64,000 bases of DNA from Clostridia bacterium. GTDB lineage: Bacteria; Bacillota; Clostridia; UMGS1810. How positions within the stretch are numbered: position 1 is the first letter of the stretch; each line of letters opens with the position of its first letter. The notes below the pieces were generated by a model that was not told the DNA's origin, did no database searches, and was given only the letters and a program-made list of their open reading frames with translations. The translations under genes were made by a program, and so were the position numbers. Location of the stretch: contig JAZPZD010000015.1 in NCBI GenBank assembly GCA_045544515.1, forward strand, positions 32,557 to 96,556, written 5' to 3'. Below are positions 4,126 through 35,927 of this stretch, piece by piece.

Positions 4126-5283
4126 ATGCGAACCTGGGCAGAGATTAATTTAGATGCCATAAAAGAAAACTTTGTAAATATAAAAAAGAAAACCTCGTCA
4201 CTTATAATGGCTGTGATAAAGGCTGATGCCTACGGCCACGGTATAAAAGAAGTTGCATCTGTACTGAAGACCGCAGGTGCAAACTACTTTGGCGTTGCAA
4301 CTCCCGACGAAGCTCTGGAATTAAGAAACTTGGGGATTAACCTGCCTATACTGATACTGGGCGTAATATTCAAAGAGGACTATCATAGAATAATAGAGAA
4401 TGACATCTGTATGACGGTGGCCTCGAGGCAGTGTGCTGCAGATATTTCAGACGCCGCACAAAAGGTAGGTAAAAACGCAAAAATCCATATCAAACTCGAC
4501 ACCGGTATGGGAAGAATAGGCTTTCCTGTGGGCATAGATGATAAAAAAGCTGCAGACGATATAGAATATATATCAAAGCTCAAAAACATAGAAATCGCAG
4601 GCATATATTCGCATATGTCCCGTGCAGACGAATACGACAAATCATATTCCAAAGAGCAGCTTAACAAATTTATCAAGCTGTGCTCTCTTGTAGAAGACAG
4701 GGGCATATCAATACCGATTAAACATATAGCAAACTCGGCGGCTTTTCTTACGCTTAAAGAGGCACATCTGGATATGGTAAGAGTAGGAATTTCGCTCTAT
4801 GGTCTTTCTCCCTCGGAGGAAACCGAAACAGACGGCATCTCATTAAAGCCGGCTATGATGTTAAAAACAAAGGTAACACATATAAAAACAATCACCCAAG
4901 ACACGCTAATCAGCTACGGCGGAAACTACAAGGCGGCAAAGGGACAAAAAATTGCCACCATTGCCATAGGCTATGCAGACGGATTTTCCAGAATTCTCTC
5001 GGGCAAAGCCAAGGTCATAGTGTGCGGACAGCTTGCAAATGTGGTGGGCAACATATGTATGGACCAGTGTATGATAGATGTAACCCATATCGACAATATT
5101 AATATCGGCGATGAGGTTATAATATTTGGCTCCGATGGTAATAATACAATTACCGTAGATTCTGTTGCGCATCTGTTGGGCACGATAAACTATGAGATTG
5201 TATGCTCGGTCAGCAGGCGAGTTCCCCGTGCTTACATACACGACAACAAAATCATTGCCGAAATCAACTATCTGTTGCAATGA
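4126..5283 (+). CDS. alr: alanine racemase
   Basis: 385 aa with the PLP-lysine motif AVIKADAYGHG and the C-terminal ...GYADGF...MDQCMIDV pattern. Confidence 0.95.
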   Translation: MRTWAEINLDAIKENFVNIKKKTSSLIMAVIKADAYGHGIKEVASVLKTAGANYFGVATPDEALELRNLGINLPILILGVIFKEDYHRIIENDICMTVASRQCAADISDAAQKVGKNAKIHIKLDTGMGRIGFPVGIDDKKAADDIEYISKLKNIEIAGIYSHMSRADEYDKSYSKEQLNKFIKLCSLVEDRGISIPIKHIANSAAFLTLKEAHLDMVRVGISLYGLSPSEETETDGISLKPAMMLKTKVTHIKTITQDTLISYGGNYKAAKGQKIATIAIGYADGFSRILSGKAKVIVCGQLANVVGNICMDQCMIDVTHIDNINIGDEVIIFGSDGNNTITVDSVAHLLGTINYEIVCSVSRRVPRAYIHDNKIIAEINYLLQ

Positions 5284-5372
5284 TATTCTTTGGCAGAATA
5301 TACATTTGACAATACAGACTAAAGAATATATAATTATTATATATCAAAAAAGCCGGATAGCAGATTGGGGGC

Positions 5373-5657
5373 ATGATTGCTTTGTCGCATCAAAAGAAAA
5401 TTCTCATTAGTTTACCCGATGCACTTCTTACCGAAGTTGACACCCTTGCCACTGCACAAAAAATCAACAGAAGCGAATTTGTAAGAGAAGCTATGCGTCA
5501 TTATGTTGACAAGCAAAAAACTGCCTCTCTTAACGAAGCACTCAAAAAAGGCTACGAGCAAATGGCGGATATCAATATCGAGATTGCCGAACTTTGCATT
5601 AGTGCCGACAACATTCAACAGCAAAGCTACGAGGAAAAATTAGCGGAGTGTGAATGA
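5373..5657 (+). CDS. mazE: ribbon-helix-helix (CopG/MazE/EndoAI-type) antitoxin
   Basis: 94 aa with the RHH motif ISLPDALLTEVDTLATAQKINRSEFVREAMRHYV. It lies directly upstream of mazF and downstream of alr, as in Bacillus alr-ndoAI-ndoA. Confidence 0.8.
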   Translation: MIALSHQKKILISLPDALLTEVDTLATAQKINRSEFVREAMRHYVDKQKTASLNEALKKGYEQMADINIEIAELCISADNIQQQSYEEKLAECE

Positions 5658-5663
5658 TTTTTT

Positions 5664-6002
5664 ATGGTAAAACGAGGAGATATTTTTTACGCGGATTTAA
5701 GCCCCGTGATAGGTTCCGAGCAAGGAGGCATACGCCCTGTGATTGTCGTTCAAAACGACATTGGAAACAAGTACAGCCCCACAGTTATCGTGGCGGCAGT
5801 AACCTCCAGGATCAACAAGGCAAAGATGCCCACGCACATCGAGATAAGTGCACTCGAATACGGTCTTACCAAGGACTCTGTAATCCTTGCCGAACAAATC
5901 CGAACCATAGACAAAAAACGCCTCAAAGAAAAAATCGGGCGTATTGATGATAAACTTATAGAAAAGGTTAACACAGCACTTATGATAAGTTTTGGACTTT
6001 AG
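5664..6002 (+). CDS. mazF: MazF/EndoA mRNA interferase toxin
   Basis: [48 protein letters not shown]... is near-collinear with B. subtilis EndoA as I remember it. Confidence 0.95.
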
Positions 6003-6023
6003 AAACGAAAGGTGGAATTTTTT

Positions 6024-6533
6024 ATGAAAATTCAGTTAAGACACAAACTAATGCTTTTGGTAATTGCAGTTGCAATGGTATTTTCGGCGGTATATGCCCT
6101 TGCAGACCCGGGCGACAATAACGACCCGCTCGTAACTCTGTCCTACATTACCAAGACACTTATGCCCCAGATCGAAGATACAATCGACGAGAAAATCAGC
6201 GATGCTCTGAGAGACTTTAGTCCGTCTTCTTCCAACAATAATAGTTCTGACACTCACAAAACCGATAATACATACCAGATTATCACTGCCAAGGCAGGAC
6301 AGATGTTAATCGGTGACGAGGGCACAGAGATGATTTTGCGTTCGGGCGATGCCACAATAGTTTCCGGTGCACAGGGCGGTGTGTCCGACCTTACTGCAGG
6401 TCTTGACCTTACACAAGGTGCATATGTACCCAAAAACCACCTCCTCTTATCTCCCAGAAAGGACACAAGAGGTATGAACTTTGTTACAGATGCGGTGGTA
6501 ATCGTAAGAGGTTCTTACTCACTTATCAGATAA
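6024..6533 (+). CDS. secreted hypothetical protein (signal peptide)
   Basis: ORF track 6012..6533. AAAGGTGG precedes ATG 6024 (MKIQLRHKLMLLVIAVAMVFSAVYALA). I recognise no domain. Confidence 0.5.
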   Translation: MKIQLRHKLMLLVIAVAMVFSAVYALADPGDNNDPLVTLSYITKTLMPQIEDTIDEKISDALRDFSPSSSNNNSSDTHKTDNTYQIITAKAGQMLIGDEGTEMILRSGDATIVSGAQGGVSDLTAGLDLTQGAYVPKNHLLLSPRKDTRGMNFVTDAVVIVRGSYSLIR

Positions 6534-6548
6534 TTTTTTTAAAAAAGC

Positions 6549-6590
6549 AAAACCCTTTCATTTCCGTTTGGATCTGAAAGGGTTTTTATT
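6549..6590. terminator. bidirectional rho-independent terminator between convergent genes
   Basis: Stem AACCCTTTCA / TGAAAGGGTT flanked by an A-run and a T-run. Confidence 0.6.
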
Positions 6591-6591
6591 T

Positions 6592-7956
6592 TTATTTATT
6601 GCAGAGGCTCTCGCCTATCTTGTATACATCTCCCGCACCAACGGTGAGGATTACATCGCCTTCTTTGGCGTTTTGTTTTATATAATTTTCTATCTCTTCA
6701 AACTCTTTTATATAGATTGCTCCGTCGATTTTTGCTGCAAGGTCCTTGGAATGTACAATGCCTGTATCCTTTTCTCTTGCGGCAAAGATGTCTGTAATTA
6801 TCACATTTTCCGAAAGCGACAGTGCCTTTGCAAAGTCATCCATAAGGCTTATGGTTCTTGTGTATGTGTGGGGTTGGAATATGCACCACTGTCTGTTATG
6901 CTTTACATTGGATAGTGCCTTTAGCGTTGCCTCTATCTCTGTGGGGTGATGTGCATAGTCATCTATTACAAGAGCTCCGTTTACAGTGCCCTTCTTTTCA
7001 AAACGGCGTTTGGTTCCTGTGTACTTTTCAAGTCCCGATTTGATACAGTCAAAATCTATACCCATATTAAGTGCAGCAGCGGTAGTGGCAAGTGCATTTA
7101 GCACATTGTGTATACCAACCACATTAAGTACTATGTGGCCTAACTTTTCGCCATTATTATACACATCGAATTCGGGATAGCCAAAATCCGAATATGTGAT
7201 ATTTTTTGCACAGTAGTCGGCATCTTCAAAACCAAAGGTATACACCTTTGCCTTGGTGTTTTGTGCCGATTTAACTGCATACTCGCTCTCCTTGTTTACT
7301 ACTGCAAAGCCGTCCTCTTCGGGCAAAAGCGAACAAAACGAAGAAAACGCATCTACGATATCGTCTATATCCTTGTAGTAGTCCAGGTGGTCCTCCTCGA
7401 CATTCAGGATTATCGCAATTTTGGGGAAGAATTTGAGGAAGTTTCGCATATATTCACAGGTTTCTGTAAGAAAATACTCGCTCTTTCCTATTCTGAGGTT
7501 ACCGTCTATGCCATCGAGCTTGCCGCCGACCATTATGGTAGGGTCTTTTTTGTCTTCCAGCAGGATATATGCAAGCATAGAGGTTGCGGTGGTTTTGCCG
7601 TGTGTTCCCGCAACGCTTATGGCTGTGGAATAATCCTTCATAATATACCCAAGCATTGTGGCACGGTCTATGAGCTTTATCCCCTTTTGCTTTGCCGCTA
7701 TCATCTCGGGGTTGTCATCATGGACGGCAGAGGTATAGACAACAATATCCTGATTTGTGATGTTTTCTGCTCTGTGGCCTATCTGAACATCGGCACCTAA
7801 ATCTATCAGCTCCTTTACGCTGTCGGACATAGAAATATCCGAGCCCGAAACTTTGATGCCGTTATTTAATAATATCTTGGCAATACCGCTCATACTGATA
7901 CCGCCGATACCTATAAAATGTACATATTTTGTCAATGAAAACACTCCAATAAACAT
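6592..7956 (-). CDS. murC: UDP-N-acetylmuramate--L-alanine ligase
   Basis: HFIGIGGISMSGIA, GTHGKTTATSM and DDYAHHPTEI motifs. The ORF-track N-terminal extension is trimmed to ATG 7956. A TTG at 7935 with a GGAG RBS is an alternative start. Confidence 0.9.
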   Translation of the reverse strand: MFIGVFSLTKYVHFIGIGGISMSGIAKILLNNGIKVSGSDISMSDSVKELIDLGADVQIGHRAENITNQDIVVYTSAVHDDNPEMIAAKQKGIKLIDRATMLGYIMKDYSTAISVAGTHGKTTATSMLAYILLEDKKDPTIMVGGKLDGIDGNLRIGKSEYFLTETCEYMRNFLKFFPKIAIILNVEEDHLDYYKDIDDIVDAFSSFCSLLPEEDGFAVVNKESEYAVKSAQNTKAKVYTFGFEDADYCAKNITYSDFGYPEFDVYNNGEKLGHIVLNVVGIHNVLNALATTAAALNMGIDFDCIKSGLEKYTGTKRRFEKKGTVNGALVIDDYAHHPTEIEATLKALSNVKHNRQWCIFQPHTYTRTISLMDDFAKALSLSENVIITDIFAAREKDTGIVHSKDLAAKIDGAIYIKEFEEIENYIKQNAKEGDVILTVGAGDVYKIGESLCNK

Positions 7957-8089
7957 ATTGATATATAAATTATACACCCTTTTTTCCAAAAAATAAACAC
8001 TTATTTTACTTAAACTGAATATTTTTTCTGTTTTTGCAAATAATACCACTAAACAGAAGCACTAAATCTTCTTGAAAGGACTTGAATTT

Positions 8090-8368
8090 ATGGAAATAAC
8101 AGACATCAGAATAAGACAAATGACAAACGATGCCAAAATGAAAGCGGTGGTATCGGTTACCTTTGACAACTCTTTTGTGGTACACGACATCAAGATTATC
8201 GAAGGCGAAGAAAAGCTTTTCATAGCGATGCCGAGCCGCAAAACCCCCGATAATGAATTTAAAGACATTGCCCACCCCATCAACCCCGAAATGAGAGAAA
8301 CGCTGTCTAATATGATACTCGAAAAATATCACTCCACAATGGTACAGCAGGAGGCAAATGTACTGTAA
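8090..8368 (+). CDS. spoVG: septation/sporulation regulator SpoVG
   Basis: [51 protein letters not shown], with an AAAGGA RBS. Confidence 0.95.
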
Positions 8369-8443
8369 ATAAATTGTTGACAAAATCTCCACTATGATAT
8401 AAAATTTAGGTAATAAACTATCGAAAAAAAGGAGATTTTGTCA

Positions 8444-8827
8444 ATGTCAATTATCAAAGAATTCAAAGAATTTGCATTTAAGGGCAATGTTCTTGATATG
8501 GCTGTCGGTGTTATAATAGGTTCTTCATTTGGTAAAATAGTTACCTCTATAGTAAACGATATTATTATGCCGGCTTGCTCACTGCTTCTTAACAACATAA
8601 AGTTTACAGATTTAAAGATTGCTCTTAAGGGCGACAGTGCAATTATGATAGGTAACTTTATTCAGACCTTTGTTGATTTTATTATAATTTCGGCTTCGGT
8701 GTTTCTTTTTGTTAAACTGATAAACGGCTTTAAGAAAAAACAAGTGGAAGAAGTAAAGGAAGAAGCTCCAAAAGCTCCCACAACCGAAGAGCTTCTTACA
8801 GAAATAAGGGATTTACTTAAAAAATAG
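8444..8827 (+). CDS. mscL: large-conductance mechanosensitive channel
   Basis: MSIIKEFKEFAFKGNVLDMAVGVIIGSSFGKIV. The G of the TAG stop codon is the first base of the IS inverted repeat (see findings). Confidence 0.95.
   Translation: MSIIKEFKEFAFKGNVLDMAVGVIIGSSFGKIVTSIVNDIIMPACSLLLNNIKFTDLKIALKGDSAIMIGNFIQTFVDFIIISASVFLFVKLINGFKKKQVEEVKEEAPKAPTTEELLTEIRDLLKK
8819..8826. repeat. target-site duplication AAAAAATA (left copy)
   Basis: An identical 8-mer abuts the other IS end at 10514-10521. Confidence 0.8.
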
Positions 8828-8853
8828 GCTCTGTTGCCAAGTGTATTGATTTT
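8827..8853. repeat. IS left terminal inverted repeat
   Basis: GGCTCTGTTGCCAAGTGTATTGATTTT compared with the reverse complement of the right end, GGCTCTGTTAGCCCACTGTATTGATTTT. Confidence 0.8.
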
Positions 8854-8920
8854 ATATCCCTACACTCCAAACTCTTTGAAGTGTAGGGATTAATCTCAAT
8901 TCTATTTCAGTCAATTTAAA

Positions 8921-9340
8921 TTAGTATCTATATTCTGCTCCTATCAAAACACCACTTAATTTATCAACATAAAAAACCATAGGGCCTAACAATCCATCTT
9001 GTGTTGTATTAAAAGTGATTTTATATAAGACTTTCCCAACAATATCAATTTTATCTTCAAAATAATATAGTGATGGCTGTGTATCAAATACTACTTCTTC
9101 AATTTTAGGATTATCAAAGTTTGTAATTGTTTCAATGCTTTTTTTGTCAAGTTTTTTCTTGACATTTTCTATTGCTGTTTGCGGAGTTATTTCAACAGGC
9201 GGAACATACTGTTTGCCCCAAGTTGAAAATACAACAGGTTCATTGTTATCCATTTTTTTATGGTCAATCACATATAAAGAGCCAAAAATCACAAATAGCA
9301 CCAACAAAGCTATGCCCATAATAAAAAGCAATCTTTTCAT
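8921..9340 (-). CDS. IS passenger gene: membrane-anchored small protein, possibly PepSY-like
   Basis: 139 aa with an AGGAGG RBS and N-terminal anchor MKRLLFIMGIALLVLFVIFGSL. The C-terminal ...FYVDKLSGVLIGAEYRY is reminiscent of PepSY-type domains (weak call). Confidence 0.55.
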   Translation of the reverse strand: MKRLLFIMGIALLVLFVIFGSLYVIDHKKMDNNEPVVFSTWGKQYVPPVEITPQTAIENVKKKLDKKSIETITNFDNPKIEEVVFDTQPSLYYFEDKIDIVGKVLYKITFNTTQDGLLGPMVFYVDKLSGVLIGAEYRY

Positions 9341-9402
9341 GTTTTATTCCTCCTTGTTCCTGAAAGGTATTGTATCAACAATGTTATCTCTTGTTAATTC
9401 TA

Positions 9403-10410
9403 TTATACTTGAAAACTGTTATAAATCAAGTCTTTGGACTTATTATGCCTACTAACCCCTTGAGTTTTCTCTTCCCAATTAAACCAGTACATATAATTAG
9501 CAAGGTATTTTGTGGCAACACCATATTTTCGTTTCATCCATAATTTCAATTTATTATGTAGTGCATTTATATGGTTTATATGATATATACCTTTTTTATG
9601 CTTACCACTATCAATTTGAACAAGGTCAGCATTAACATTTTTCGCAAATTGAATATATGCTCTATGACTGTCGGTACAGATTGTAGAAGATTGTTCAATA
9701 TTATCTTGATATGTGGCATTTAAAGCCTTTGTTGTTATTCTCCCCATACAAATAGGAACAACAACTAAACCACCATTTCTATCAACAGCAGTCGATACAC
9801 AAGTCTGTTCATGGCTGATACCTCTATAATCTATTTCTTTACCTCTTTTGTGAGATTTTCCACTATTTCTTGGTGCAATCCAATGAGGATTACCTTTCTT
9901 GTGGTTGCCCTTGAAACTTTCAGCAAAAAATGTTTCATCCATTTCAAGTACACCCTTGAGAAAATCCAATCCCATATGTTCTATCAATGCTTTTAATATC
10001 TTATGTCTCATAAAGAATGAGGTTTTCAGGGATATACCTAATGCTATTGCTGTTTCTCTCAAAGTCATTTGTTTACACATACAATCAGCATATCTAATCC
10101 AAGTAGATATTGGTAGTTTTGTATTAGCAAAAACTGTTTTGGTAAGTGCATTAAAAGTTTTACTGCAATCCTTACATAAATATCTTTGTATTCCTCTTAC
10201 TTTACCATTCTTAACAATATGCCTTTTGTTACAATGAGGACAAACCAAACCTTCTGCAAATCTTTTATCTGCGATTTCGTCTGTGGATAATTCTGCACCT
10301 ACTACTTCTATATACTCTGCTAAACTGACTGCTAATTCTGTTAATTCTTGATTTGACAACCTATTTGTCAAATCTTTTACCATGTTTTGAATATTATTTG
10401 TTATACTCAT
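9403..10410 (-). CDS. IS1595-family transposase
   Basis: Zinc ribbon CPHCNKRHIVKNGKVRGIQRYLCKDCSKTF followed by an ISXO2-like DDE core (LEMDETFF...ICTDSHRAY). The start is set at ATG 10410 behind AAGAGGTGG. Confidence 0.9.
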   Translation of the reverse strand: MSITNNIQNMVKDLTNRLSNQELTELAVSLAEYIEVVGAELSTDEIADKRFAEGLVCPHCNKRHIVKNGKVRGIQRYLCKDCSKTFNALTKTVFANTKLPISTWIRYADCMCKQMTLRETAIALGISLKTSFFMRHKILKALIEHMGLDFLKGVLEMDETFFAESFKGNHKKGNPHWIAPRNSGKSHKRGKEIDYRGISHEQTCVSTAVDRNGGLVVVPICMGRITTKALNATYQDNIEQSSTICTDSHRAYIQFAKNVNADLVQIDSGKHKKGIYHINHINALHNKLKLWMKRKYGVATKYLANYMYWFNWEEKTQGVSRHNKSKDLIYNSFQV

Positions 10411-14247: not shown

Positions 14248-16269
14248 TTACGGAATATAAACCTTGCTCATATTCACGATAGCTCCGTTTTTGATTACGA
14301 TAGTTGTGTTGTGTGGGGTAAATCTATATTCAATCCCTGAATCGTCTGCAATAAAATCTTTAAAAGAATAGTATTTCGGCTTTGCATCAAGGTCTGACTT
14401 GTCAATATATTCAAATTCTTCGGAAACAGGAAGTGTCAGCTTGCCTACTTCGTAGTATGCTTTTGCATCACTCATTCCTGTTTCGTAATATACGCTGCTA
14501 TCATTTGAAACCAAATCAAATCCACCGTTTTCTTCGCCACCATTGATTCGTACAAGTCCGCTTTCAAGACGCTCAATCTGTGTAACCTTTATTTCTTCAT
14601 TTTTGCGAACAATCACATCATTTTCTTTAAGAAATGCAATATTTCCCGCATCGTAAATCTCATAGGAATAAACGCTTACATCCATCACCGTTTTTCCGCT
14701 TTCATCGAGATACGCACCACCCTTTTCGAGAGAAACCGAGACTTTGCAATTATCAAGATTATTTATATAAAAATCATCCGTCATAGGATATACAACTGTT
14801 GCCTCTTGTTCTGCTCTTACATTTTCTTCTATTAAAAACATACCGTCATCTTCAGTAATAAGTGTCAGCATATTGTTTTTATCAACATAAAAACTTGATA
14901 TATATATTTGTGTTGCGGTTTCAATATCTTCACCCTTTTTCACATGGGCTAAAATCAAACCTGCATTACCTTTTTTAATGCCTTTTACGGTAACCTTGTG
15001 CAAGCCTACAGGATAATACTCAGAATAAATTTCTTCAGGCGGATAATCTGTGTTTTCTTCTGTAATTACGAGTTTGTCGTCTGCATAAGCAAAAACCCGC
15101 CATTCATATCCATCGTAATATTCATATTCAAATACATGTTCAGTTTCGCAGTTATACCTCATATCTACACTAAAAACTTGCGGCTCATACGGAATTTCCA
15201 CGCTTATTACACCAAGTGCAAAAGGTGCAAGTTCTCCCTGATTGAAATATAGCACCACAGAATTTTTGGTGAGATAAAACTGAACATAGCCAAGATATTC
15301 ATTCACATAATCATAGGTATAGATATCTGCAGATTCGGGAGCTATCTCTTTTAATTTGTCAACAAATAAATTTGTTACATATTGGCTCAAAGAAACATCA
15401 AGCATTATTTCGTCAATCACATCTGAAATTGACATTTCAGGTTCATAACTTGTACAAAATGTTCTTGATTCCATCGTTTTTGTTGGGTGCACCCCGCCAA
15501 CATTTATGTATTTGTGATTGATAAATGAGAGATATCCCCAAACTCTGTAAGTTTGTTCAAAAGTAAGTTCAAAAACAAAAGGTGTAAACGCATCTCCCAT
15601 TTCTTTTCTAAGGTTAAGTGCATCTTCCTTCCTGGCTCTTGCTTCTTCCATAAACTTATCTGCATCCCACTCATAATCAAAATTGATTAAATCAAAGCAA
15701 GGGTTCTTATAAGGGTTTTCTATGACAGGATAGTATGCAACTGCTTCTATTAAAACATTGCCGTCATCATCGGTTATGGTTTCTTCGATTTTTTCTGCAG
15801 AAACAGTGTAAGCATTCGCCGGTGAGTAAATGTGAATTGTTTTGGTGTCGCCGTACCAATGAACCTCACACTCAAAGGCTTCTGATATTGCTCTTAAAGG
15901 AACCAAGGTTCTGCTATCCTTAATTTTTGCAGGAACATCAAGTGCTTTTTCTTCGCCATTAAAATACATTTTGTTTTCACCGATTGTAAGAAGCAAATTA
16001 TCATTTGCTCTGCGTGCCAAAACAATCTGTTTTCCATCTTTGGCAGAATAATAAACTGCACAGCCCATGGTTTCAAAAATAGCCCTCATCGGAACCAAGG
16101 TTCTGCCGTTTTCGATTTCCGGCTCTACATCAAAATTTATAATCTTATCATTGTAGAAAACATCTATTTTGTCTTTTTCACCAGACAATTCATCTGCCGC
16201 AAACGCCGTAAACGACGGCAAGCAAATAACAAACGCGATAAATAAACTTAAAAGCCTTTTAGTTTTCAT
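14248..16269 (-). CDS. secreted protein with a copper-amine-oxidase-N-like 'stalk' domain and a DUF3298/RsiV-like domain
   Basis: Start at MKTKRLLSLFIAFVICLPSFTAFA (GGGAGG RBS). The repeated motif GRTLVPMRAIFE / SRTLVPLRAISEAF is followed by ...INVGGVHPTK... Confidence 0.65.
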   Translation of the reverse strand: MKTKRLLSLFIAFVICLPSFTAFAADELSGEKDKIDVFYNDKIINFDVEPEIENGRTLVPMRAIFETMGCAVYYSAKDGKQIVLARRANDNLLLTIGENKMYFNGEEKALDVPAKIKDSRTLVPLRAISEAFECEVHWYGDTKTIHIYSPANAYTVSAEKIEETITDDDGNVLIEAVAYYPVIENPYKNPCFDLINFDYEWDADKFMEEARARKEDALNLRKEMGDAFTPFVFELTFEQTYRVWGYLSFINHKYINVGGVHPTKTMESRTFCTSYEPEMSISDVIDEIMLDVSLSQYVTNLFVDKLKEIAPESADIYTYDYVNEYLGYVQFYLTKNSVVLYFNQGELAPFALGVISVEIPYEPQVFSVDMRYNCETEHVFEYEYYDGYEWRVFAYADDKLVITEENTDYPPEEIYSEYYPVGLHKVTVKGIKKGNAGLILAHVKKGEDIETATQIYISSFYVDKNNMLTLITEDDGMFLIEENVRAEQEATVVYPMTDDFYINNLDNCKVSVSLEKGGAYLDESGKTVMDVSVYSYEIYDAGNIAFLKENDVIVRKNEEIKVTQIERLESGLVRINGGEENGGFDLVSNDSSVYYETGMSDAKAYYEVGKLTLPVSEEFEYIDKSDLDAKPKYYSFKDFIADDSGIEYRFTPHNTTIVIKNGAIVNMSKVYIP

Positions 16270-32234: not shown

Positions 32235-32279
32235 TCTAAATTAATACGGAGTTCGATTCTCCCTGAAGTCAACGCACAT

Positions 32280-32306
32280 AAAAAAGATGCCAAAAGGCAT
32301 CTTTTT
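32280..32306. terminator. strong bidirectional terminator, inferred to be the original ssrA terminator
   Basis: AAAAAAGATGCC-AAAA-GGCATCTTTTTT, 2 nt from the distal copy of the ssrA 3' end. Confidence 0.7.
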
Positions 32307-32308
32307 TA

Positions 32309-32323
32309 TGTGGTGGAGACGAG
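32309..32323 (-). repeat. 15-bp direct repeat = duplicated 3' terminus of ssrA (distal att-like site)
   Basis: GTGGTGGAGACGAGG is identical to 35579-35593, which covers the last 14 nt of tmRNA (including CCA) plus one more. Confidence 0.6.
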
Positions 32324-32474
32324 GTGTAACTACACAGTAGCTCGTCAAAAGTATATAGCTAATTGAGGTTATTACGTTTGTCGTAACAGGAATAGCCTCG
32401 AGTGTCATAAAGCATTTTAATTGAAATGATTTTGAGATTTTTGTAATTATTGTATTATTAAGATTATATTGCAC

Positions 32475-32508
32475 AAAACTTACACGCGTGTAAATGCGTG
32501 TAAGTTTT
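32475..32508. terminator. perfect 13-bp hairpin terminator of the AlbA_2-family gene
   Basis: AAAACTTACACGC-GTGTAAAT-GCGTGTAAGTTTT. Confidence 0.65.
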
Positions 32509-32514
32509 AATTGT

Positions 32515-34164
32515 TCATTTCAAAATTTTATATTTTGCAGCACTTGTGTTTCCAGTACGAACTAAAATTTTCTTTTTTTCTAATTTGTTTAGCAAACGAT
32601 ATGCTTGAGGACCCGATACATGCAATAAATCAATAACGTCTTTTCGTGTTATATATTCTTTAGTTTGAGCCAATTTGATTATTAATTCCGTATAGCGAAT
32701 TATATCAATGTCGGTCTGGCGTACATATTGAACAGGATCCTTGTACGCTTTAGCACTTAAAACATATACTCGTCCGCGACCGCTTCCTATGGCATCAATT
32801 ATTCCTGATTCCGCCAGTCTCTCTACTGTTGAACGAAGCTTTGTTTCGGGAATATGACACTCTATGCAAATTTCACTAAGAGACATTCTGCGATTATGCT
32901 TTAAAGTGTTTAACACAAACAAAGCATTAAGCGAAATAGGGGTACTTGATCTTTGTTGTTCCTCTGAAATTAATGCAACCATTTTCTTGTCGGGCATTCC
33001 ACGGGGGATAAACAAACGCACGGATGTTGATGTACTTTCGGAATAATCCGGTAGTTCTCGGCCGTATATAAGAGAACCTTCAAAAATTCTATCAACACCT
33101 CTGCCGGAACGCTCTGCCAATCCAATTCGTTTTAGGTCGTCAGCTAAAACGGGATTCCTACCATGTGGTTCAACGGTTAGTATGTTTTGATATGTGACGC
33201 CTTCTATGAATCCACCGGGATTTGATATAGATAGTCCATCTGCATCAATTCGGACTAAAACTCTTCCTAATTGTGTGTAATCTCGATGTGCAAATGCATT
33301 AACAATTGCCTCTCTTACCGCACGTGGATTGAATTCTGGTACAGATAACCGAAATAGTCCTTGTTCAATTTCTTGCTCGGGATTTCTTGCTGAAACGAAA
33401 TCGATCATTTTTTCAATAGCTAAAAGCATAGGTAAATAAAAAGATTCGTTTGCTGTAACTTCTGTTCCACGCATCATAACAAAGGCTGATTCAGCAGTTG
33501 GAATAAGTTCCTTTATCTTTTCTTTGCGTCCTAATATTAGCATTCCCGTATATGTTGGAATGAGCCGGTCATCTATTGTGACAACAAATTGCATAGCCTT
33601 GTCAAGTTCTTCATCTGTCAACTCCAGGAGATACTTTTCGCCGTTATATGAACGTATAATCCCTCTTAAACGTTCTCGCTCAACAGGGTCCAAATCCTGA
33701 TACTGTGCACCCGGAACAGGCTGTGCAGAAAAATCTAAAAGAGACAATTCGCTTAGGCGTGTCGTTATTTCGTGAGGATACAAAGGAATGTTTTCAGGTG
33801 TTCCGTCTGCCTTTAATCTTCTTCGCTGCATTTTTCCGGAAGATGATGCAACAATACTTCGACTTTTGGGCACATGAATAATTAATGCCATTTTTTCTGT
33901 TTCTACAGAATGTAACGGCTCTATTTGTACAGAAATGGGTGGAACAGTACGGTTTGCAATAAAAGCAGCTAACTGGGTATAATCTCTGTGAGATTCATGC
34001 ACTCCGGTTAGTGTTCCATTATCTTCGACACCGAGATAAACATCTCCGCCATATGTGTTTGCAAAAGCTACTACAGCATCAATCAAATCATTATCGCTGA
34101 GCTTTTTTAAATCGCTTTTAAATTCTATTTCCAGTGTTTCTTTTTCGGGTAAAGTATGACTCAT
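32515..34164 (-). CDS. ATP-binding protein with N-terminal AlbA_2/Schlafen-like domain, HATPase_c_4-like core and C-terminal winged-HTH domains (COG2865-type putative regulator)
   Basis: Start MSHTLPEKETLEIEFKS behind GGAGG. Contains ...AVVAFANTYGGDVYLGVEDNGTLTGV..., ...REAIVNAFAHRDY...NPGGF...GRNPVLADDLKRIGLAERSGRGVDRI..., and a C-terminal HTH-like tail. Confidence 0.7.
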   Translation of the reverse strand: MSHTLPEKETLEIEFKSDLKKLSDNDLIDAVVAFANTYGGDVYLGVEDNGTLTGVHESHRDYTQLAAFIANRTVPPISVQIEPLHSVETEKMALIIHVPKSRSIVASSSGKMQRRRLKADGTPENIPLYPHEITTRLSELSLLDFSAQPVPGAQYQDLDPVERERLRGIIRSYNGEKYLLELTDEELDKAMQFVVTIDDRLIPTYTGMLILGRKEKIKELIPTAESAFVMMRGTEVTANESFYLPMLLAIEKMIDFVSARNPEQEIEQGLFRLSVPEFNPRAVREAIVNAFAHRDYTQLGRVLVRIDADGLSISNPGGFIEGVTYQNILTVEPHGRNPVLADDLKRIGLAERSGRGVDRIFEGSLIYGRELPDYSESTSTSVRLFIPRGMPDKKMVALISEEQQRSSTPISLNALFVLNTLKHNRRMSLSEICIECHIPETKLRSTVERLAESGIIDAIGSGRGRVYVLSAKAYKDPVQYVRQTDIDIIRYTELIIKLAQTKEYITRKDVIDLLHVSGPQAYRLLNKLEKKKILVRTGNTSAAKYKILK

Positions 34165-34195
34165 AAAAACACCTCCAAATAATAATGTTATTAAT

Positions 34196-34224
34196 AGTAT
34201 ATCGCACGCGTGTAAAAAAGTCAA
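34196..34224 (-). promoter_or_regulatory. sigmaA-type promoter of the AlbA_2-family gene with a CACGCGTG palindrome in the spacer
   Basis: TTGACT, 17 nt (TTTTTACACGCGTGCGA), TATACT. Confidence 0.5.
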
Positions 34225-34262
34225 TGCAAACTTACACGCGTGCGAGTTTGTGCGCGTGAGTT

Positions 34263-35351
34263 TTAAAAATTTGCATATTCGAATTTTTTGAAATGAAAAT
34301 ATTTAGTTGTTTGATCCTGTGAATTTTTACATATGTATTTTCCGATTTTTGCATTGTTTTGAATAACATCAAATTCATTAAAATTAACTGTATCCAATTG
34401 TTTTTGAATGGTATTATCCCCAAGAGGGCTTTTGGTTTGATTAAGTAGCACTAAATATAAAATGGGCTTAGGATTAGGAATTTCGCAATAATAAGAAAGT
34501 GATTCTACATGCCTTATACCATCTTTTAAATTTGTTTTATAATAAATAGGAATAAAATAGGAATCGGGCAAAGGATTATCGTTGATTGTAACAATCGCAT
34601 TTTCAGTCGTGTTGAAATCAAACACCATTTTAACATATTTCCTATTGGGATACATGTCTTGATTAACCGAGTTAAATATATTGTCTAATAATTCAATAAT
34701 GCATATTTTAATCTGTCTTTCTTTTTCCGCATTTATAAAATCAGACATTTTGTACTGTTTATCATATAAATCAAAATGATATTCAATATTTAGAAAATAT
34801 TCTGGTGAGAACTTTTCTTTTCCCCATAAAACTAAGTTATGCTTAGCAAAGTTGTCAAATTCTTTATAAAGATTGATAGTTAAATGGAATTTATCACATA
34901 ACTTGGTTATTTGTGGATAACATTTCAATATGCCTAGTATTTTTTTATTATTTAAAAAATCCCATTGCTGATAATTCATATTATAAACAATGTTTAGTAT
35001 TTGGTATAAGCAGTCGTTAATTTCTGAAATATATTGGCAATACATGTGAACATTCTGTTGTACATATGCTCTCCCATCGACATGTAGAGTTCCTATTTTG
35101 TACCCAATGGAGTTGACTATTCCTTCTTTTATTTTTCGACATTCAGAAATTTGTTTGCAAACATCTTCAATAACTATTCTGCTTTGTTCAGCCCAATTCA
35201 AACAATTGAAAATCTTTTTTATATAGGCATCGACATCGGGTATGCGCCAATTTATTGCTTCATTTAAAAAATCTACCTGTTCGTAGTAAGCAATTTGCTT
35301 GTTTAATTCCAATTCTGATATAATAGAATAATCATTAAGAATATCATTCAT
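34263..35351 (-). CDS. hypothetical protein, 362 aa, no recognisable domain
   Basis: Long ORF with AAAGGTGA RBS and its own promoter. Very AT-rich, with Asn/Ile/Lys/Tyr-rich composition. No signal peptide or TM helix. Confidence 0.6.
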   Translation of the reverse strand: MNDILNDYSIISELELNKQIAYYEQVDFLNEAINWRIPDVDAYIKKIFNCLNWAEQSRIVIEDVCKQISECRKIKEGIVNSIGYKIGTLHVDGRAYVQQNVHMYCQYISEINDCLYQILNIVYNMNYQQWDFLNNKKILGILKCYPQITKLCDKFHLTINLYKEFDNFAKHNLVLWGKEKFSPEYFLNIEYHFDLYDKQYKMSDFINAEKERQIKICIIELLDNIFNSVNQDMYPNRKYVKMVFDFNTTENAIVTINDNPLPDSYFIPIYYKTNLKDGIRHVESLSYYCEIPNPKPILYLVLLNQTKSPLGDNTIQKQLDTVNFNEFDVIQNNAKIGKYICKNSQDQTTKYFHFKKFEYANF

Positions 35352-35386
35352 TTGACATCACCTTTTCAAAAGATATAATCAATAAG

Positions 35387-35415
35387 ATTATATCACTAAA
35401 GCTCTATGGTTTCAA
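35387..35415 (-). promoter_or_regulatory. sigmaA-type promoter of the 362-aa gene
   Basis: TTGAAA, 17 nt, TATAAT. Confidence 0.5.
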
Positions 35416-35578
35416 TTGTAAGGGAGTTTTATCTGTTTAATCTCAACAGTATTTTATCGAAAAAATCTAAAATATCTAGTTTAAGCACTACCATCTTAAA
35501 CAAAGACAAACACCGCCTGGCTAGTAAATCTTAGCCAAAGCGGTGTTTCTTGTTATATAGCACTTGGCGTGCTACTGA

Positions 35579-35593
35579 GTGGTGGAGACGAGG
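35579..35593 (-). repeat. 15-bp direct repeat (proximal copy, inside the ssrA 3' end)
   Basis: GTGGTGGAGACGAGG. Confidence 0.6.
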
Positions 35594-35927
35594 AGAATCG
35601 AACTCCTGTCCGAAAATTCATCCATCGGAGGCTCTCCGAGCGCAGTTTGTGGTCAACATTCCCTCAAGTTAAAGCCCACAAACAAGCTTTAAATCTTGGT
35701 AGCTTCATCTTTCATGGTATGCTCAAAGCTTTGCATACTCACGTTCACCACTCGATGACGCTCTTATCCCGACCGTGGTCCTTCAGGTAAGAACGGCTAC
35801 CTGTAATTAGGCAGCGTAAGCTAAATTTTTGTTAGCGTTTAATTTTAAAAGTTAGGCTTGTTAAAGCGGTTCCCGCCGCTGCTCGCTCCTCTGACTTCAA
35901 AACCCCCGTCGAAACCATTGCGTCCCC
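35580..35927 (-). ncRNA. ssrA: tmRNA
   Basis: Minus-strand read: 5' GGGGACGCAATGGTTTCGACGGGGG...; tag reading frame GCT AAC AAA AAT TTA GCT TAC GCT GCC TAA (ANKNLAYAA); 3' ...GGAGTTCGATTCTCCTCGTCTCCACCA. The promoter TTGACA-17-TATACT lies upstream at ~35966-35994. Confidence 0.9.

Follow-up and report, generated by a model that had tools for sequence, protein, structure and literature searches.

An integrase-less islet at the ssrA gene of a Clostridia bacterium carries a Schlafen gene and a rare candidate defence gene

Introduction

Single-gene HEPN proteins of abortive infection (AbiD, AbiF, AbiJ, AbiU2 and AbiV, as well as AbiA's C-terminal domain) and the family HEPN_Cthe2314 (PF18730) have a helical core with a D..L.QI.NI.[FY] helix, which in HEPN_Cthe2314 is followed after ~50 residues by an [FY]-x-N-x-x-x-H motif (Anantharaman et al., 2013; PMC3710099). 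These Abi proteins are encoded by stand-alone genes of Firmicutes, which occur in defence islands and beside RM operons. Hallmarks of the HEPN superfamily are an all-alpha up-and-down bundle, metal-independent RNase activity and an Rx4-6H motif located where the last core helix begins, with a polar residue behind the R. The anticodon nucleases PrrC and RloC, in which an N-terminal ABC-type ATPase domain is combined with a C-terminal HEPN domain bearing Rx4-6H, are encoded in type I restriction operons, and their proposed logic is to couple a backup effector of the RNase type to restriction.

Prokaryotic Schlafens of the HisKinase-HTH or "Schlatpase"-HTH class (SLFN-GHKL-HTH) combine an SLFN_AlbA_2 domain with a GHKL ATPase domain (HATPase_c_4) and C-terminal winged helices (Perez Taboada et al., Nat Microbiol 2026, PMC13056530; Kuzmenko et al., bioRxiv 10.64898/2026.05.29.728809). 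They are single, mobile genes in defence surroundings, and BREX-linked copies have been described (PMC12839542). No protective phenotype has been published for this class, and HisKinase-type Schlafens that were tested in E. coli did not protect it from the phages of the panel used (PMC13056530). Cleavage of tRNA on a phage trigger, or protection, was shown only for Schlafens of other architectures (Ig-like, DUF262 and pAgo fusions; PMC13056530).

Here, a small islet was analyzed that resembles the integrative islands targeting tRNA and tmRNA genes and their integrase-less remnants (CIME-like elements). It lies in a window of 64,000 nucleotides from a Clostridia bacterium (GCA_045544515.1, contig JAZPZD010000015.1, positions 32,557 to 96,556), which is the whole stretch of DNA that was analyzed and to which all positions refer. 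The initial annotation of the window had proposed that the two genes of the islet form a candidate defence or abortive-infection pair.

Results and Discussion

Anatomy of the Islet

The ssrA (tmRNA) gene was located on the minus strand at 35580..35927 (ARAGORN; Rfam RF00023, 149 bits; tag ANKNLAYAA), and its 3′ end is the insertion site of an islet of ~3.27 kb (a 3.3-kb insert at the CCA end) with two ORFs as cargo. The islet is bordered by a 15-nt direct repeat. The left copy, GTGGTGGAGACGAGG (35579..35593), is the true tmRNA 3′ end and the right copy (32310..32324) is a pseudo 3′ end; the two are 100% identical with a spacing of 3269 nt. In the congeners G012 and G008 the site is empty and the CCA end of the tmRNA is immediately followed by the terminator that is displaced in the window. 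In the window, the displaced native ssrA terminator has a perfect 17-bp stem and is located at 32275..32312 (minus strand). The directly repeated 3′ end of ssrA, together with the empty site in relatives, establishes the tmRNA-associated islet that had been noticed in the initial annotation.

With CIME-like elements the islet shares the precise location of the insertion at the ssrA 3′ end, the short direct repeat, the displaced native terminator and tandem accretion, the latter seen in the congener G009 as a third repeat copy. It differs from them in its size of only 3.3 kb, in a repeat of merely 14-15 nt and in the lack of an integrase, an excisionase and a mobilisation gene. No integrase gene was found at the attachment site, since the ORFs between the repeats (32325-35578) are only those of a 362-aa protein and of the Schlafen protein. 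In another element (L048) a tyrosine integrase adjoins a Schlafen gene with 80% identity to that of the window, which is compatible with a decayed remnant here. Around homologues of the 362-aa gene in L007, L046 and L047, a search for tRNA-Pro attachment sites found no direct repeats of at least 11 nt.

The gene of the 362-aa protein spans 34263..35351 on the minus strand. Its G+C content of 0.25-0.30, compared to ~0.42 in the flanks, bears out the extreme AT-richness described before. The promoter TTGAAA-17-TATAAT (35387..35415, minus strand) is TG-extended and has 11 of 12 matches. The Schlafen gene has a promoter of its own, TTGACT-17-TATACT (34196..34224, minus strand), which overlaps the palindrome TTACACGCGTG; the two genes are thus independently promoted, as had been stated. 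Directly 3′ of the Schlafen stop codon lies a TTACACG-type repeat or palindrome (32475..32508), which also scores as a terminator-like hairpin.

A Swappable Cargo Slot and Two Independent Genes

The comparison with G009 resolved the islet into constant and variable parts. Two blocks are common to both genomes, at 32302-34253 (86% identity) and 35500-35927 (blastn, 92% identity). The latter includes a conserved islet arm (35500..35579, minus strand), in which the terminator scan detected an islet-borne hairpin at 35516-35539. Between the blocks, at 34254..35499 (minus strand), the window carries the 362-aa gene with its promoter, whereas G009 has an HTH gene and the type III Mod and Res genes (N6_N4_Mtase and ResIII; 5.5 kb) in exactly this place. 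The Schlafen genes of the two genomes are 93% identical. The 362-aa gene is therefore the occupant of a swappable cargo slot and the Schlafen gene is the conserved "anchor" of the islet. With the Schlafen gene on one side and the tmRNA end on the other, the 1.2-kb slot, filled differently in the two congeners, makes the islet a minimal and clean case of a defence hotspot.

The proposed pair, in which one protein would sense and the other execute, could be suggested by two defence-type genes lying ~100 nt apart on the same strand of one islet. Its distribution speaks against it. No Schlafen homologue is present in the 12 loci (131 kb) that have a gene of the 362 family, and no gene of that family in the 27 loci (206 kb) that have a Schlafen homologue. 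In addition to this lack of co-occurrence in 39 related loci, each gene has its own promoter, the Schlafen gene of G009 stands beside a type III RM system, and members of the Schlafen family outnumber those of the 362 family by thousands to one. In L021, a near-identical strain (99% identity in the 362-aa gene), the 362-aa gene has a nonsense codon at position 195 beside an intact Schlafen gene that shows purifying selection. The pair is largely refuted by these data and is regarded as highly improbable. Because the families do not co-occur, the islet is described as two independent single-gene modules, unrelated and separately mobile, and not as a conserved two-gene system.

The 362 Family Is Rare and Under Purifying Selection

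For the 362-aa protein, no family match was obtained in Pfam, PADLOC, NCBIfam or PHROGs, in line with the earlier statement that no motif could be assigned. A PADLOC check had been suggested for the islet; it offered no model for the 362 family. The family is very small, with ~30 clusters among billions of proteins. It was found in 0 of 40 relatives and is absent from 50,697 phage records and 72,556 plasmid records (annotated; tblastn), and IMG/VR held no relative.

Among intact copies of the family, dN/dS ranges between 0.15 and 0.28, which shows that they are under purifying selection and that the gene is real. Between the window and the L021 strain the value for the 362-aa gene is 0.89. A further copy, in L006, is truncated.

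A structure model of the 362-aa protein (pLDDT 83, pTM 0.83) shows a soluble two-domain fold. Residues 13-227 are helical with two beta-hairpins; the helical core spans residues ~93-230 and is followed by a variable, beta-rich domain (residues 237-362). The N-terminal part is better conserved within the family (mean pairwise identity 0.39) than the C-terminal part (0.26). The structural check proposed in the initial annotation gave no confident housekeeping homologue and no informative relative either: Foldseek searches of the full model against PDB and BFVD, and of the C-terminal domain against PDB, yielded nothing at E < 0.1, and a profile search of PDB gave chance matches only (E > 0.1). 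The best matches to HEPN toxin folds (7bxo, 6m6u, 8xdj) had TM-scores of 0.40-0.48 on the target with a probability of at most 0.3.

A Putative Divergent HEPN-Like Helical Core

A doubtful HEPN-like stretch, FDNFAKHNL, had been pointed out previously. In alignments it indeed falls on the [FY]RNxxxH motif of genuine HEPN_Cthe2314 proteins, in the same register: at a relaxed threshold only, FDNFAKH aligns with FRNNIVH. The aligned residues are D166-N167-F-A-K170-H171. H171 is kept in 26 of 26 family members and N167 in at least 90% of these 26, and K170, D92, E211 and R237 are invariant. PF18730 matches two of the 26 members, both divergent and in the same register, with E-values of 0.007 and 0.016, both below the 27.1-bit cut-off of Pfam. 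In a profile-profile comparison (hhalign), the helical part of the 362 family matched HEPN_Cthe2314 with a probability of 55-70% (64-70% at E 4e-5 to 7e-5, score 42.6), compared to a score of 14.3 for the reversed control and of 19.8 ± 3.7 (maximum 29.9) for 40 block shuffles; the confident stretch is one helix region, residues ~97-152.

The similarity extends to the helix with the D..L.QI.NI.[FY] pattern and to the distance of ~50 residues between this helix and the motif. Like the HEPN Abi genes, those of the 362 family are stand-alone genes of Firmicutes that occur in defence islands and beside RM operons, and with lactococcal Abi genes they share a strongly AT-rich composition and a rare and patchy occurrence. 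The main difference is the motif itself, [DN]NxxKH. The arginine of the canonical HEPN motif Rx4-6H is replaced by Asp or Asn across the family, and an invariant Lys precedes the His. Furthermore, the 362-aa protein exceeds the known HEPN proteins in size: it has an additional helical hairpin plus beta-hairpin at the N-terminus, another beta-hairpin that follows the motif as an insertion, and a C-terminal beta domain of 125 residues without a fold match. From the profile comparisons, there is moderate support for regarding the conserved helical part as a divergent HEPN-like domain. HEPN families without Arg but with His exist (PMC3710099). Without the catalytic arginine of the canonical motif, the domain could have no catalytic function.

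This leads to a different reading of the protein, as a non-catalytic accessory of mobile elements or of restriction, e.g., a regulator that binds RNA or nucleotides and is built on a HEPN scaffold that has lost its activity, and not an effector. The family-wide replacement of the arginine is in favour of this reading, as are known inactive HEPN domains with binding roles, such as MtlR and MNT-fused forms (PMC3710099), and a regulatory or modulating role would be possible at the five loci of a distant clade that abut type I RM operons. The conserved residues K170-H171, N167, D92, E211 and R237, however, argue for a preserved active or binding site, and in the window the gene stands alone, has a strong promoter and adjoins no restriction system. 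Lactococcal-type Abi genes are known for an extreme AT content, for rarity and for decay into pseudogenes. The 362 family resembles them in all three, which also speaks against a mere accessory, and this reading is considered unlikely.

Two other assignments were tried. A Fic/Doc reading, based on a DGR/KHN likeness, was dropped for want of profile support and because of the different motif order. PD-(D/E)xK and HD readings were dropped because the fold is helical with a single invariant His.

Genomic Context and Proposed Role of the 362-aa Protein

The neighbourhoods of the 362 family are frequently of the defence type. AbiA (E 1e-229), PDC-M59A and Fic were found beside the gene in L003, AbiEi/AbiEii and type I RM genes in L004-L006, PDC-S01 and type I RM genes in L061, AbiEi in L046 and an RdrA-like gene in L002. 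In the distant clade, the immediate neighbour of the gene is hsdM at four loci (e.g., L080, where the gene is directly upstream of it) and hsdR at one (L079, where the gene comes directly after it). Only toxin-antitoxin-type genes (Zeta, PemK) were seen in L059/L060, beside serine recombinases. As the sample is small (~14 loci, some of them related), these neighbours amount to guilt by association.

No defence gene is near the family member in L001, L007 and L047, which have ordinary neighbours only (e.g., Peptidase_S41, TrmO, catalase). Together with the absence of any fold or family match that would constrain the function, these loci could indicate a housekeeping or structural protein or a phage-derived moron, with coincidental surroundings. 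The absence from relatives, phage and plasmid records and IMG/VR, the patchy distribution, the location in tRNA/tmRNA-adjacent islets and the recurrence next to Abi and RM genes make such an unrelated function quite improbable.

As an explanation of the whole locus, we therefore lean, at slightly better than even chances, towards an integrase-less islet of 3.27 kb with two independent single-gene modules, in which the 362-aa protein, from a very rare family without annotation, would act by itself in abortive infection or defence. Its N-terminal helical part would be a divergent HEPN-like effector with Asp/Asn for Arg, retained Asn and His, and an invariant Lys next to the His. The poorly conserved C-terminal beta domain would serve as the sensor or specificity part, and on activation the protein would damage RNA or otherwise arrest the cell; activity as an RNase, sensing by the beta domain and an effect on phages are all inferred.

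An accessory immunity or addiction module had been suggested for the islet. Its accessory nature was confirmed, with defence-type surroundings where relatives could be examined; the addiction part is unsupported. A toxin stabilising the islet would need an antitoxin, for which a small RNA or peptide from a divergent promoter (35352-35379) could be considered. This promoter matches the consensus at 12 of 12 positions and lies on the other strand; it and the 362-aa gene's own promoter stand back-to-back. A transcript of ~170 nt is predicted from it, with good folding (z -3.8) and, at its end, a hairpin that can serve either strand, and a 42-aa ORF is located at 35406-35534. The z-score is, however, largely due to the tmRNA terminator hairpin, and in L004, L059 and L061 the gap to the upstream gene is only 21-66 nt, which leaves no room for a divergent element. 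No antitoxin-like protein is encoded beside the 362-aa gene; the module contains no other ORF of at least 50 aa, and only the 42-aa ORF lies on the opposite strand, unlike type II systems with their adjacent, co-transcribed small antitoxin gene. The islet also has no integrase or replication function to stabilise. An addiction toxin is accordingly very unlikely.

Within the favoured defence reading, the distant clade invites comparison with PrrC and RloC, since its members are likewise found beside hsdM and hsdR. The 362-aa protein differs from these nucleases in having no N-terminal ABC/P-loop ATPase (no ATPase family was matched in Pfam, PADLOC, NCBIfam or PHROGs) and no canonical Rx4-6H motif, and no restriction system adjoins the copy in the window. 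We tentatively suggest, at somewhat less than even confidence, that the 362 family is a previously undescribed single-gene anti-phage family with a HEPN-derived [DN]NxxKH effector and a beta sensor of unmatched fold, one clade of which would be coupled to type I restriction operons as a backup like PrrC and the other would be a free cassette in tRNA/tmRNA islets. If the family proves protective, it would be a new and very rare family within the HEPN-type Abi repertoire of gut and rumen Clostridia. It would further provide a natural example of a HEPN site working without arginine and a new RM-linked backup effector. Current ideas are not overturned by this.

The Schlafen Gene

The longest ORF of the neighbouring gene, 32515-34224 (minus strand), encodes 569 aa from a TTG, as initially annotated. 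The ATG at 34164 is the likely start because of the GGAGG site upstream and the resulting length of 549 aa, which equals that of homologues. The gene at 32515..34164 (minus strand) thus encodes a prokaryotic Schlafen of the SLFN-GHKL-wHTHx2 type, and the AlbA_2/Schlafen-like domain, GHKL-like ATPase and two wHTH domains described earlier were all recovered: SLFN_AlbA_2 (PF04326, E 4.3e-16), HATPase_c_4 (PF13749, E 1.7e-14), HTH_24 (E 4.5e-7) and MarR_2 (E 2.6e-5), the last two at the C-terminus. The Ex4(E/D)xK motif defined for SLFN_AlbA_2 (PMC13056530) is intact in its Ex4ExK form as E9-TLEI-E14-F-K16 (549-aa numbering).

By domains and motif, the protein is assigned to the published SLFN-GHKL-HTH class, with which it also shares its nature as a single mobile gene in defence surroundings. 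It differs from the described members in being the anchor of a small ssrA islet whose neighbouring slot is swappable. From characterised relatives, a role as tRNA-cutting effector is predicted by analogy, in which the GHKL ATPase would drive oligomerisation and the winged helices would sense nucleic acid or anchor on it. Since the class is the commonest among bacterial Schlafens and functionally still untested, this natural cassette, compact and complete with promoter and flanking repeats, is a convenient test object. Matches to the protein at E ≤ 0.001, mostly distant, were found in 17 of the 41 genomes searched (the window's own included), and the only close copy among them is that of the congener G009.

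Structure of the islet at the ssrA locus

The islet lies on the minus strand behind the tmRNA gene ssrA (35927–35580), which is followed by an arm of 80 nt that contains a terminator hairpin (35539–35516). The 362-aa ORF (35351–34263) is preceded by a TG-extended promoter, TTGAAA-17-TATAAT (35415–35387), and the Schlafen ORF of 549 aa (34164–32515) by its own promoter TTGACT-17-TATACT (34224–34196), so that each gene has an autonomous promoter. The Schlafen ORF most likely begins at the ATG at 34164, which is preceded by a GGAGG site. A TTACACG-type repeat/palindrome separates this ORF from an exact second copy of the 15 nt at the ssrA end (32324–32310) and a perfect 17-bp terminator hairpin (32312–32275). 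The G+C content across the 362-aa gene was 0.25–0.30, compared to approximately 0.42 in the surroundings. Since these elements are present on the minus strand between 32.3 and 35.9 kb and the G+C content drops there, the ORFs, promoter, low G+C content and tmRNA islet had been described correctly in the initial annotation.

In the congener genomes G012 and G008, the CCA end of the tmRNA is directly followed by AATAAAAAACACCC...GGGTGTTTTTTT, with no insert between them. The same terminator was found in a near-identical strain (L021), displaced by 3.27 kb and located behind the repeat copy. The islet is an insertion at the ssrA end. The ORF scan revealed no integrase gene in the islet, and in another element (L048) a Schlafen gene with 80% identity to the 549-aa one adjoins genes for a tyrosine integrase, Mob and TnpV; therefore, the simplest origin of the islet would be a decayed remnant of an integrase-bearing element.

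In the corresponding locus of the congener G009 (L020; G009:C14), the ssrA 3′ end is present in triplicate (8022–8035, 8240–8253 and 15790–15803), which shows that islets have accreted there in tandem. Compared to the window, the orientation of the tmRNA-islet block relative to the PRT-DHHW genes is reversed at this locus. A 24–30-nt insertion that is missing from L021 lies in the window at 32235–32274, with the XRE gene on one side and the displaced terminator on the other; it includes GGAGTTCGATTCTCC (32248–32262), the ssrA T-arm in inverted orientation.

On the plus strand, a promoter with a perfect match to the consensus (TTGACA-16-TATAAT, 12/12; 35352–35379) is positioned back-to-back with that of the 362-aa gene. 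The predicted transcript of about 170 nt (35386–35560, plus strand) runs to the tmRNA-side terminator hairpin, has a fold z-score of −3.8 and includes a 42-aa ORF (35406–35534). At other loci of the 362 family there is no room for such an element, as the gene abuts its upstream neighbor.

Distribution of the two islet genes

The 362-aa gene and the Schlafen gene had been proposed as a defense or abortive-infection pair, a proposal that depended on the two families occurring together elsewhere. Using tblastn, no Schlafen homolog was found in 12 loci (131 kb) with a 362-family gene and no 362-family gene in 27 loci (206 kb) with a Schlafen homolog; for the 362 family the count was 0 of 40 relatives. 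The G009 islet shares 32302–34253 (86% identity) and 35500–35927 (92% identity) with the window, and the slot has been swapped: an HTH gene, a type III methylase and a Res helicase-nuclease stand in place of the 362-aa gene. In L021, where the flanking genes are 94–98% identical to the window, the 362-aa gene is 99.1% identical and carries a stop at codon 195, with 8 of 10 differences altering the protein (dN/dS 0.89). In this strain, the Schlafen gene remains intact. The pairing was rejected because of the lack of co-occurrence in the 12 and 27 loci, the slot swap and the nonsense allele, and the two genes are independently distributed. The reading as defense candidates is reasonable for each gene separately.

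Characterization of the 362-aa protein family

The family is tiny: a set of 1.8 billion proteins contained 34 representatives at 50% identity, and a set of 5.8 billion contained 28 clusters. None of these has a Pfam match or name. No relatives were detected among annotated phages, annotated plasmids or IMG/VR. Intact copies show dN/dS values of 0.15–0.28. The ORF is a real gene; it is under purifying selection and has occasionally been inactivated. In addition to the L021 allele, an inactivated copy was found in L006 (8001–8923), where the family member is broken into ORFs of 237 aa and 69 aa.

The confident structure model (pLDDT 83, pTM 0.83) consists of helices at residues 13–227, two beta-hairpins and an eight-stranded beta domain at residues 237–361. 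Searches of PDB and BFVD for similar folds gave nothing significant for either the whole model or its C-terminal domain. The mean pairwise identity is 0.39 in the N-terminal part versus 0.26 in the C-terminal part. P38, D92, Q117, I121, K170, H171, E211, R237 and F354 are invariant, and R94, N100, D113 and N167 nearly so.

For 26 aligned members scanned against Pfam, two divergent ones (P0024 and P0033) matched HEPN_Cthe2314 (PF18730) in the same register with E-values of 0.007 and 0.016, neither of which reaches the curated cut-off. Profile-profile comparison of HEPN_Cthe2314 with the family resulted in a probability of 64–70% (E 4e-5 to 7e-5) and a score of 42.6, compared to 14.3 for the reversed template and 19.8 ± 3.7 (maximum 29.9) for 40 block-shuffled templates. 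Confidence in the alignment is confined to the D..L.QI.NI.[FY] helix. When the alignment was extended at a relaxed threshold, FDNFAKH fell on FRNNIVH, and the residues between helix and motif numbered 54 versus 56 by hand count. The FDNFAKHNL stretch, initially regarded as doubtfully HEPN-like, therefore corresponds to the HEPN motif.

True HEPN_Cthe2314 members taken from genomes contain [FY]RNxxxH, whereas the 362 family has Asp/Asn instead of the arginine, keeps the Asn and His and carries an additional invariant Lys. HEPN families with the His but without the Arg have been described, for which other conserved basic residues were proposed as substitutes, and non-catalytic HEPN domains are likewise described (PMC3710099). 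Based on these sequence comparisons, HEPN ancestry of the 362-aa protein is fairly probable; that it has retained RNase activity may be considered less so. The unannotated family is, provisionally, best filed as a new, non-canonical HEPN/Abi-type member.

Genomic context of the 362-family genes

A recognized defense gene was found within a few kb in roughly two-thirds of the independent contexts, which in this small sample is an association only. One family gene is flanked by a Fic gene and AbiA (E 1e-229) with PDC-M59A adjoining (L003), while others adjoin AbiEi just behind tRNA-Pro (L046) or lie 84 nt behind tRNA-Pro (L007). In L059 and L060, three serine recombinases precede the gene, and Zeta and PemK toxins are encoded in the vicinity. 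No defense-related neighbor was found in L001 and L047.

A more distant clade (27–32% identity) is repeatedly joined to type I restriction operons, again as an association in a small sample. Its genes were found on a mobilizable element downstream of AbiEi/AbiEii and 43–74 nt before hsdM (L004, L005, L006), 43 nt before hsdM following PDC-S01 (L061) or at the same distance in L080, and 28 nt after an hsdR with N-terminal DUF4145 in a phase-variable type I restriction locus (L079, 1–7955). The order in the latter is hsdS, tyrosine recombinase, half hsdS, hsdR and the family gene.

The 362-aa protein may be a stand-alone abortive-infection-type protein. Its variable C-terminal domain would sense a phage cue and the conserved helical domain would then be unleashed, probably against RNA. 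By analogy to PrrC, the restriction-linked clade could serve as a backup to restriction.

In L002, the family gene is near an 873-aa RdrA-like ATPase (PADLOC E 8e-12), after which comes a protein of >900 aa that shows a faint adenosine-deaminase signal; the two (5042–9480) are a possible RADAR-like pair. A 388-aa protein without Pfam or PADLOC match, encoded behind the three serine recombinases of L059 (7814–8980) and L060 (823–1989), ends 21 nt before the family gene and could be a local partner or simply separate cargo.

Characterization of the Schlafen gene

The Schlafen protein contains SLFN_AlbA_2 (E 4e-16), HATPase_c_4 (E 2e-14), HTH_24 and MarR_2 domains, and its N-terminal E-TLEI-E-F-K corresponds to the catalytic Ex4(E/D)xK motif of Schlafen RNases (PMC13056530). 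It is a member of an already known class, the "HisKinase-HTH" architecture of 19.2% of prokaryotic Schlafens (PMC13056530), alternatively named "Schlatpase" supradomain with C-terminal HTH (bioRxiv 10.64898/2026.05.29.728809) and widespread next to BREX loci (PMC12839542). The family is very large (>4,600 matches at E < 1e-20 among just 8,000 candidates scored), and close relatives occupy many differing mobile contexts, including one with AbiEi upstream (L026). In a Schlatpase-pAgo fusion, GHKL ATP binding drives tetramerization into the active nuclease (bioRxiv 10.64898/2026.05.29.728809). Other Schlafen fusions were protective, while the tested HisKinase fusions were negative on the phage panel used (PMC13056530). 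Acting separately from the 362-aa protein, the gene product may be an ATP-dependent, oligomerizing tRNase. Its winged helices would serve to bind nucleic acid, for which the TTACACG repeats on either side of the gene are conceivable targets.

Both sides of the gene carry TTACACG(C)-type units and the CACGCGTG palindrome (32475–32508 and 34228–34249; approximately 8270–8330 in L020). Downstream of the stop codon, the window and L021 have two units each, compared to three in G009. On the upstream side, the copy shares positions with the −35 element of the Schlafen promoter and is thus a candidate operator.

Between the near-identical strains the gene is a mosaic (window 32515–34164; L021 2478–4127). 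The dS was 0.065 at residues 1–190 and 0.56–0.94 at residues 191–549, and dN/dS was 0–0.07 along the whole gene. The divergent block extends past the gene to the repeat copy at 32325, and the sequence comparison suggests that a recombination breakpoint lies within the gene, at around 33600.
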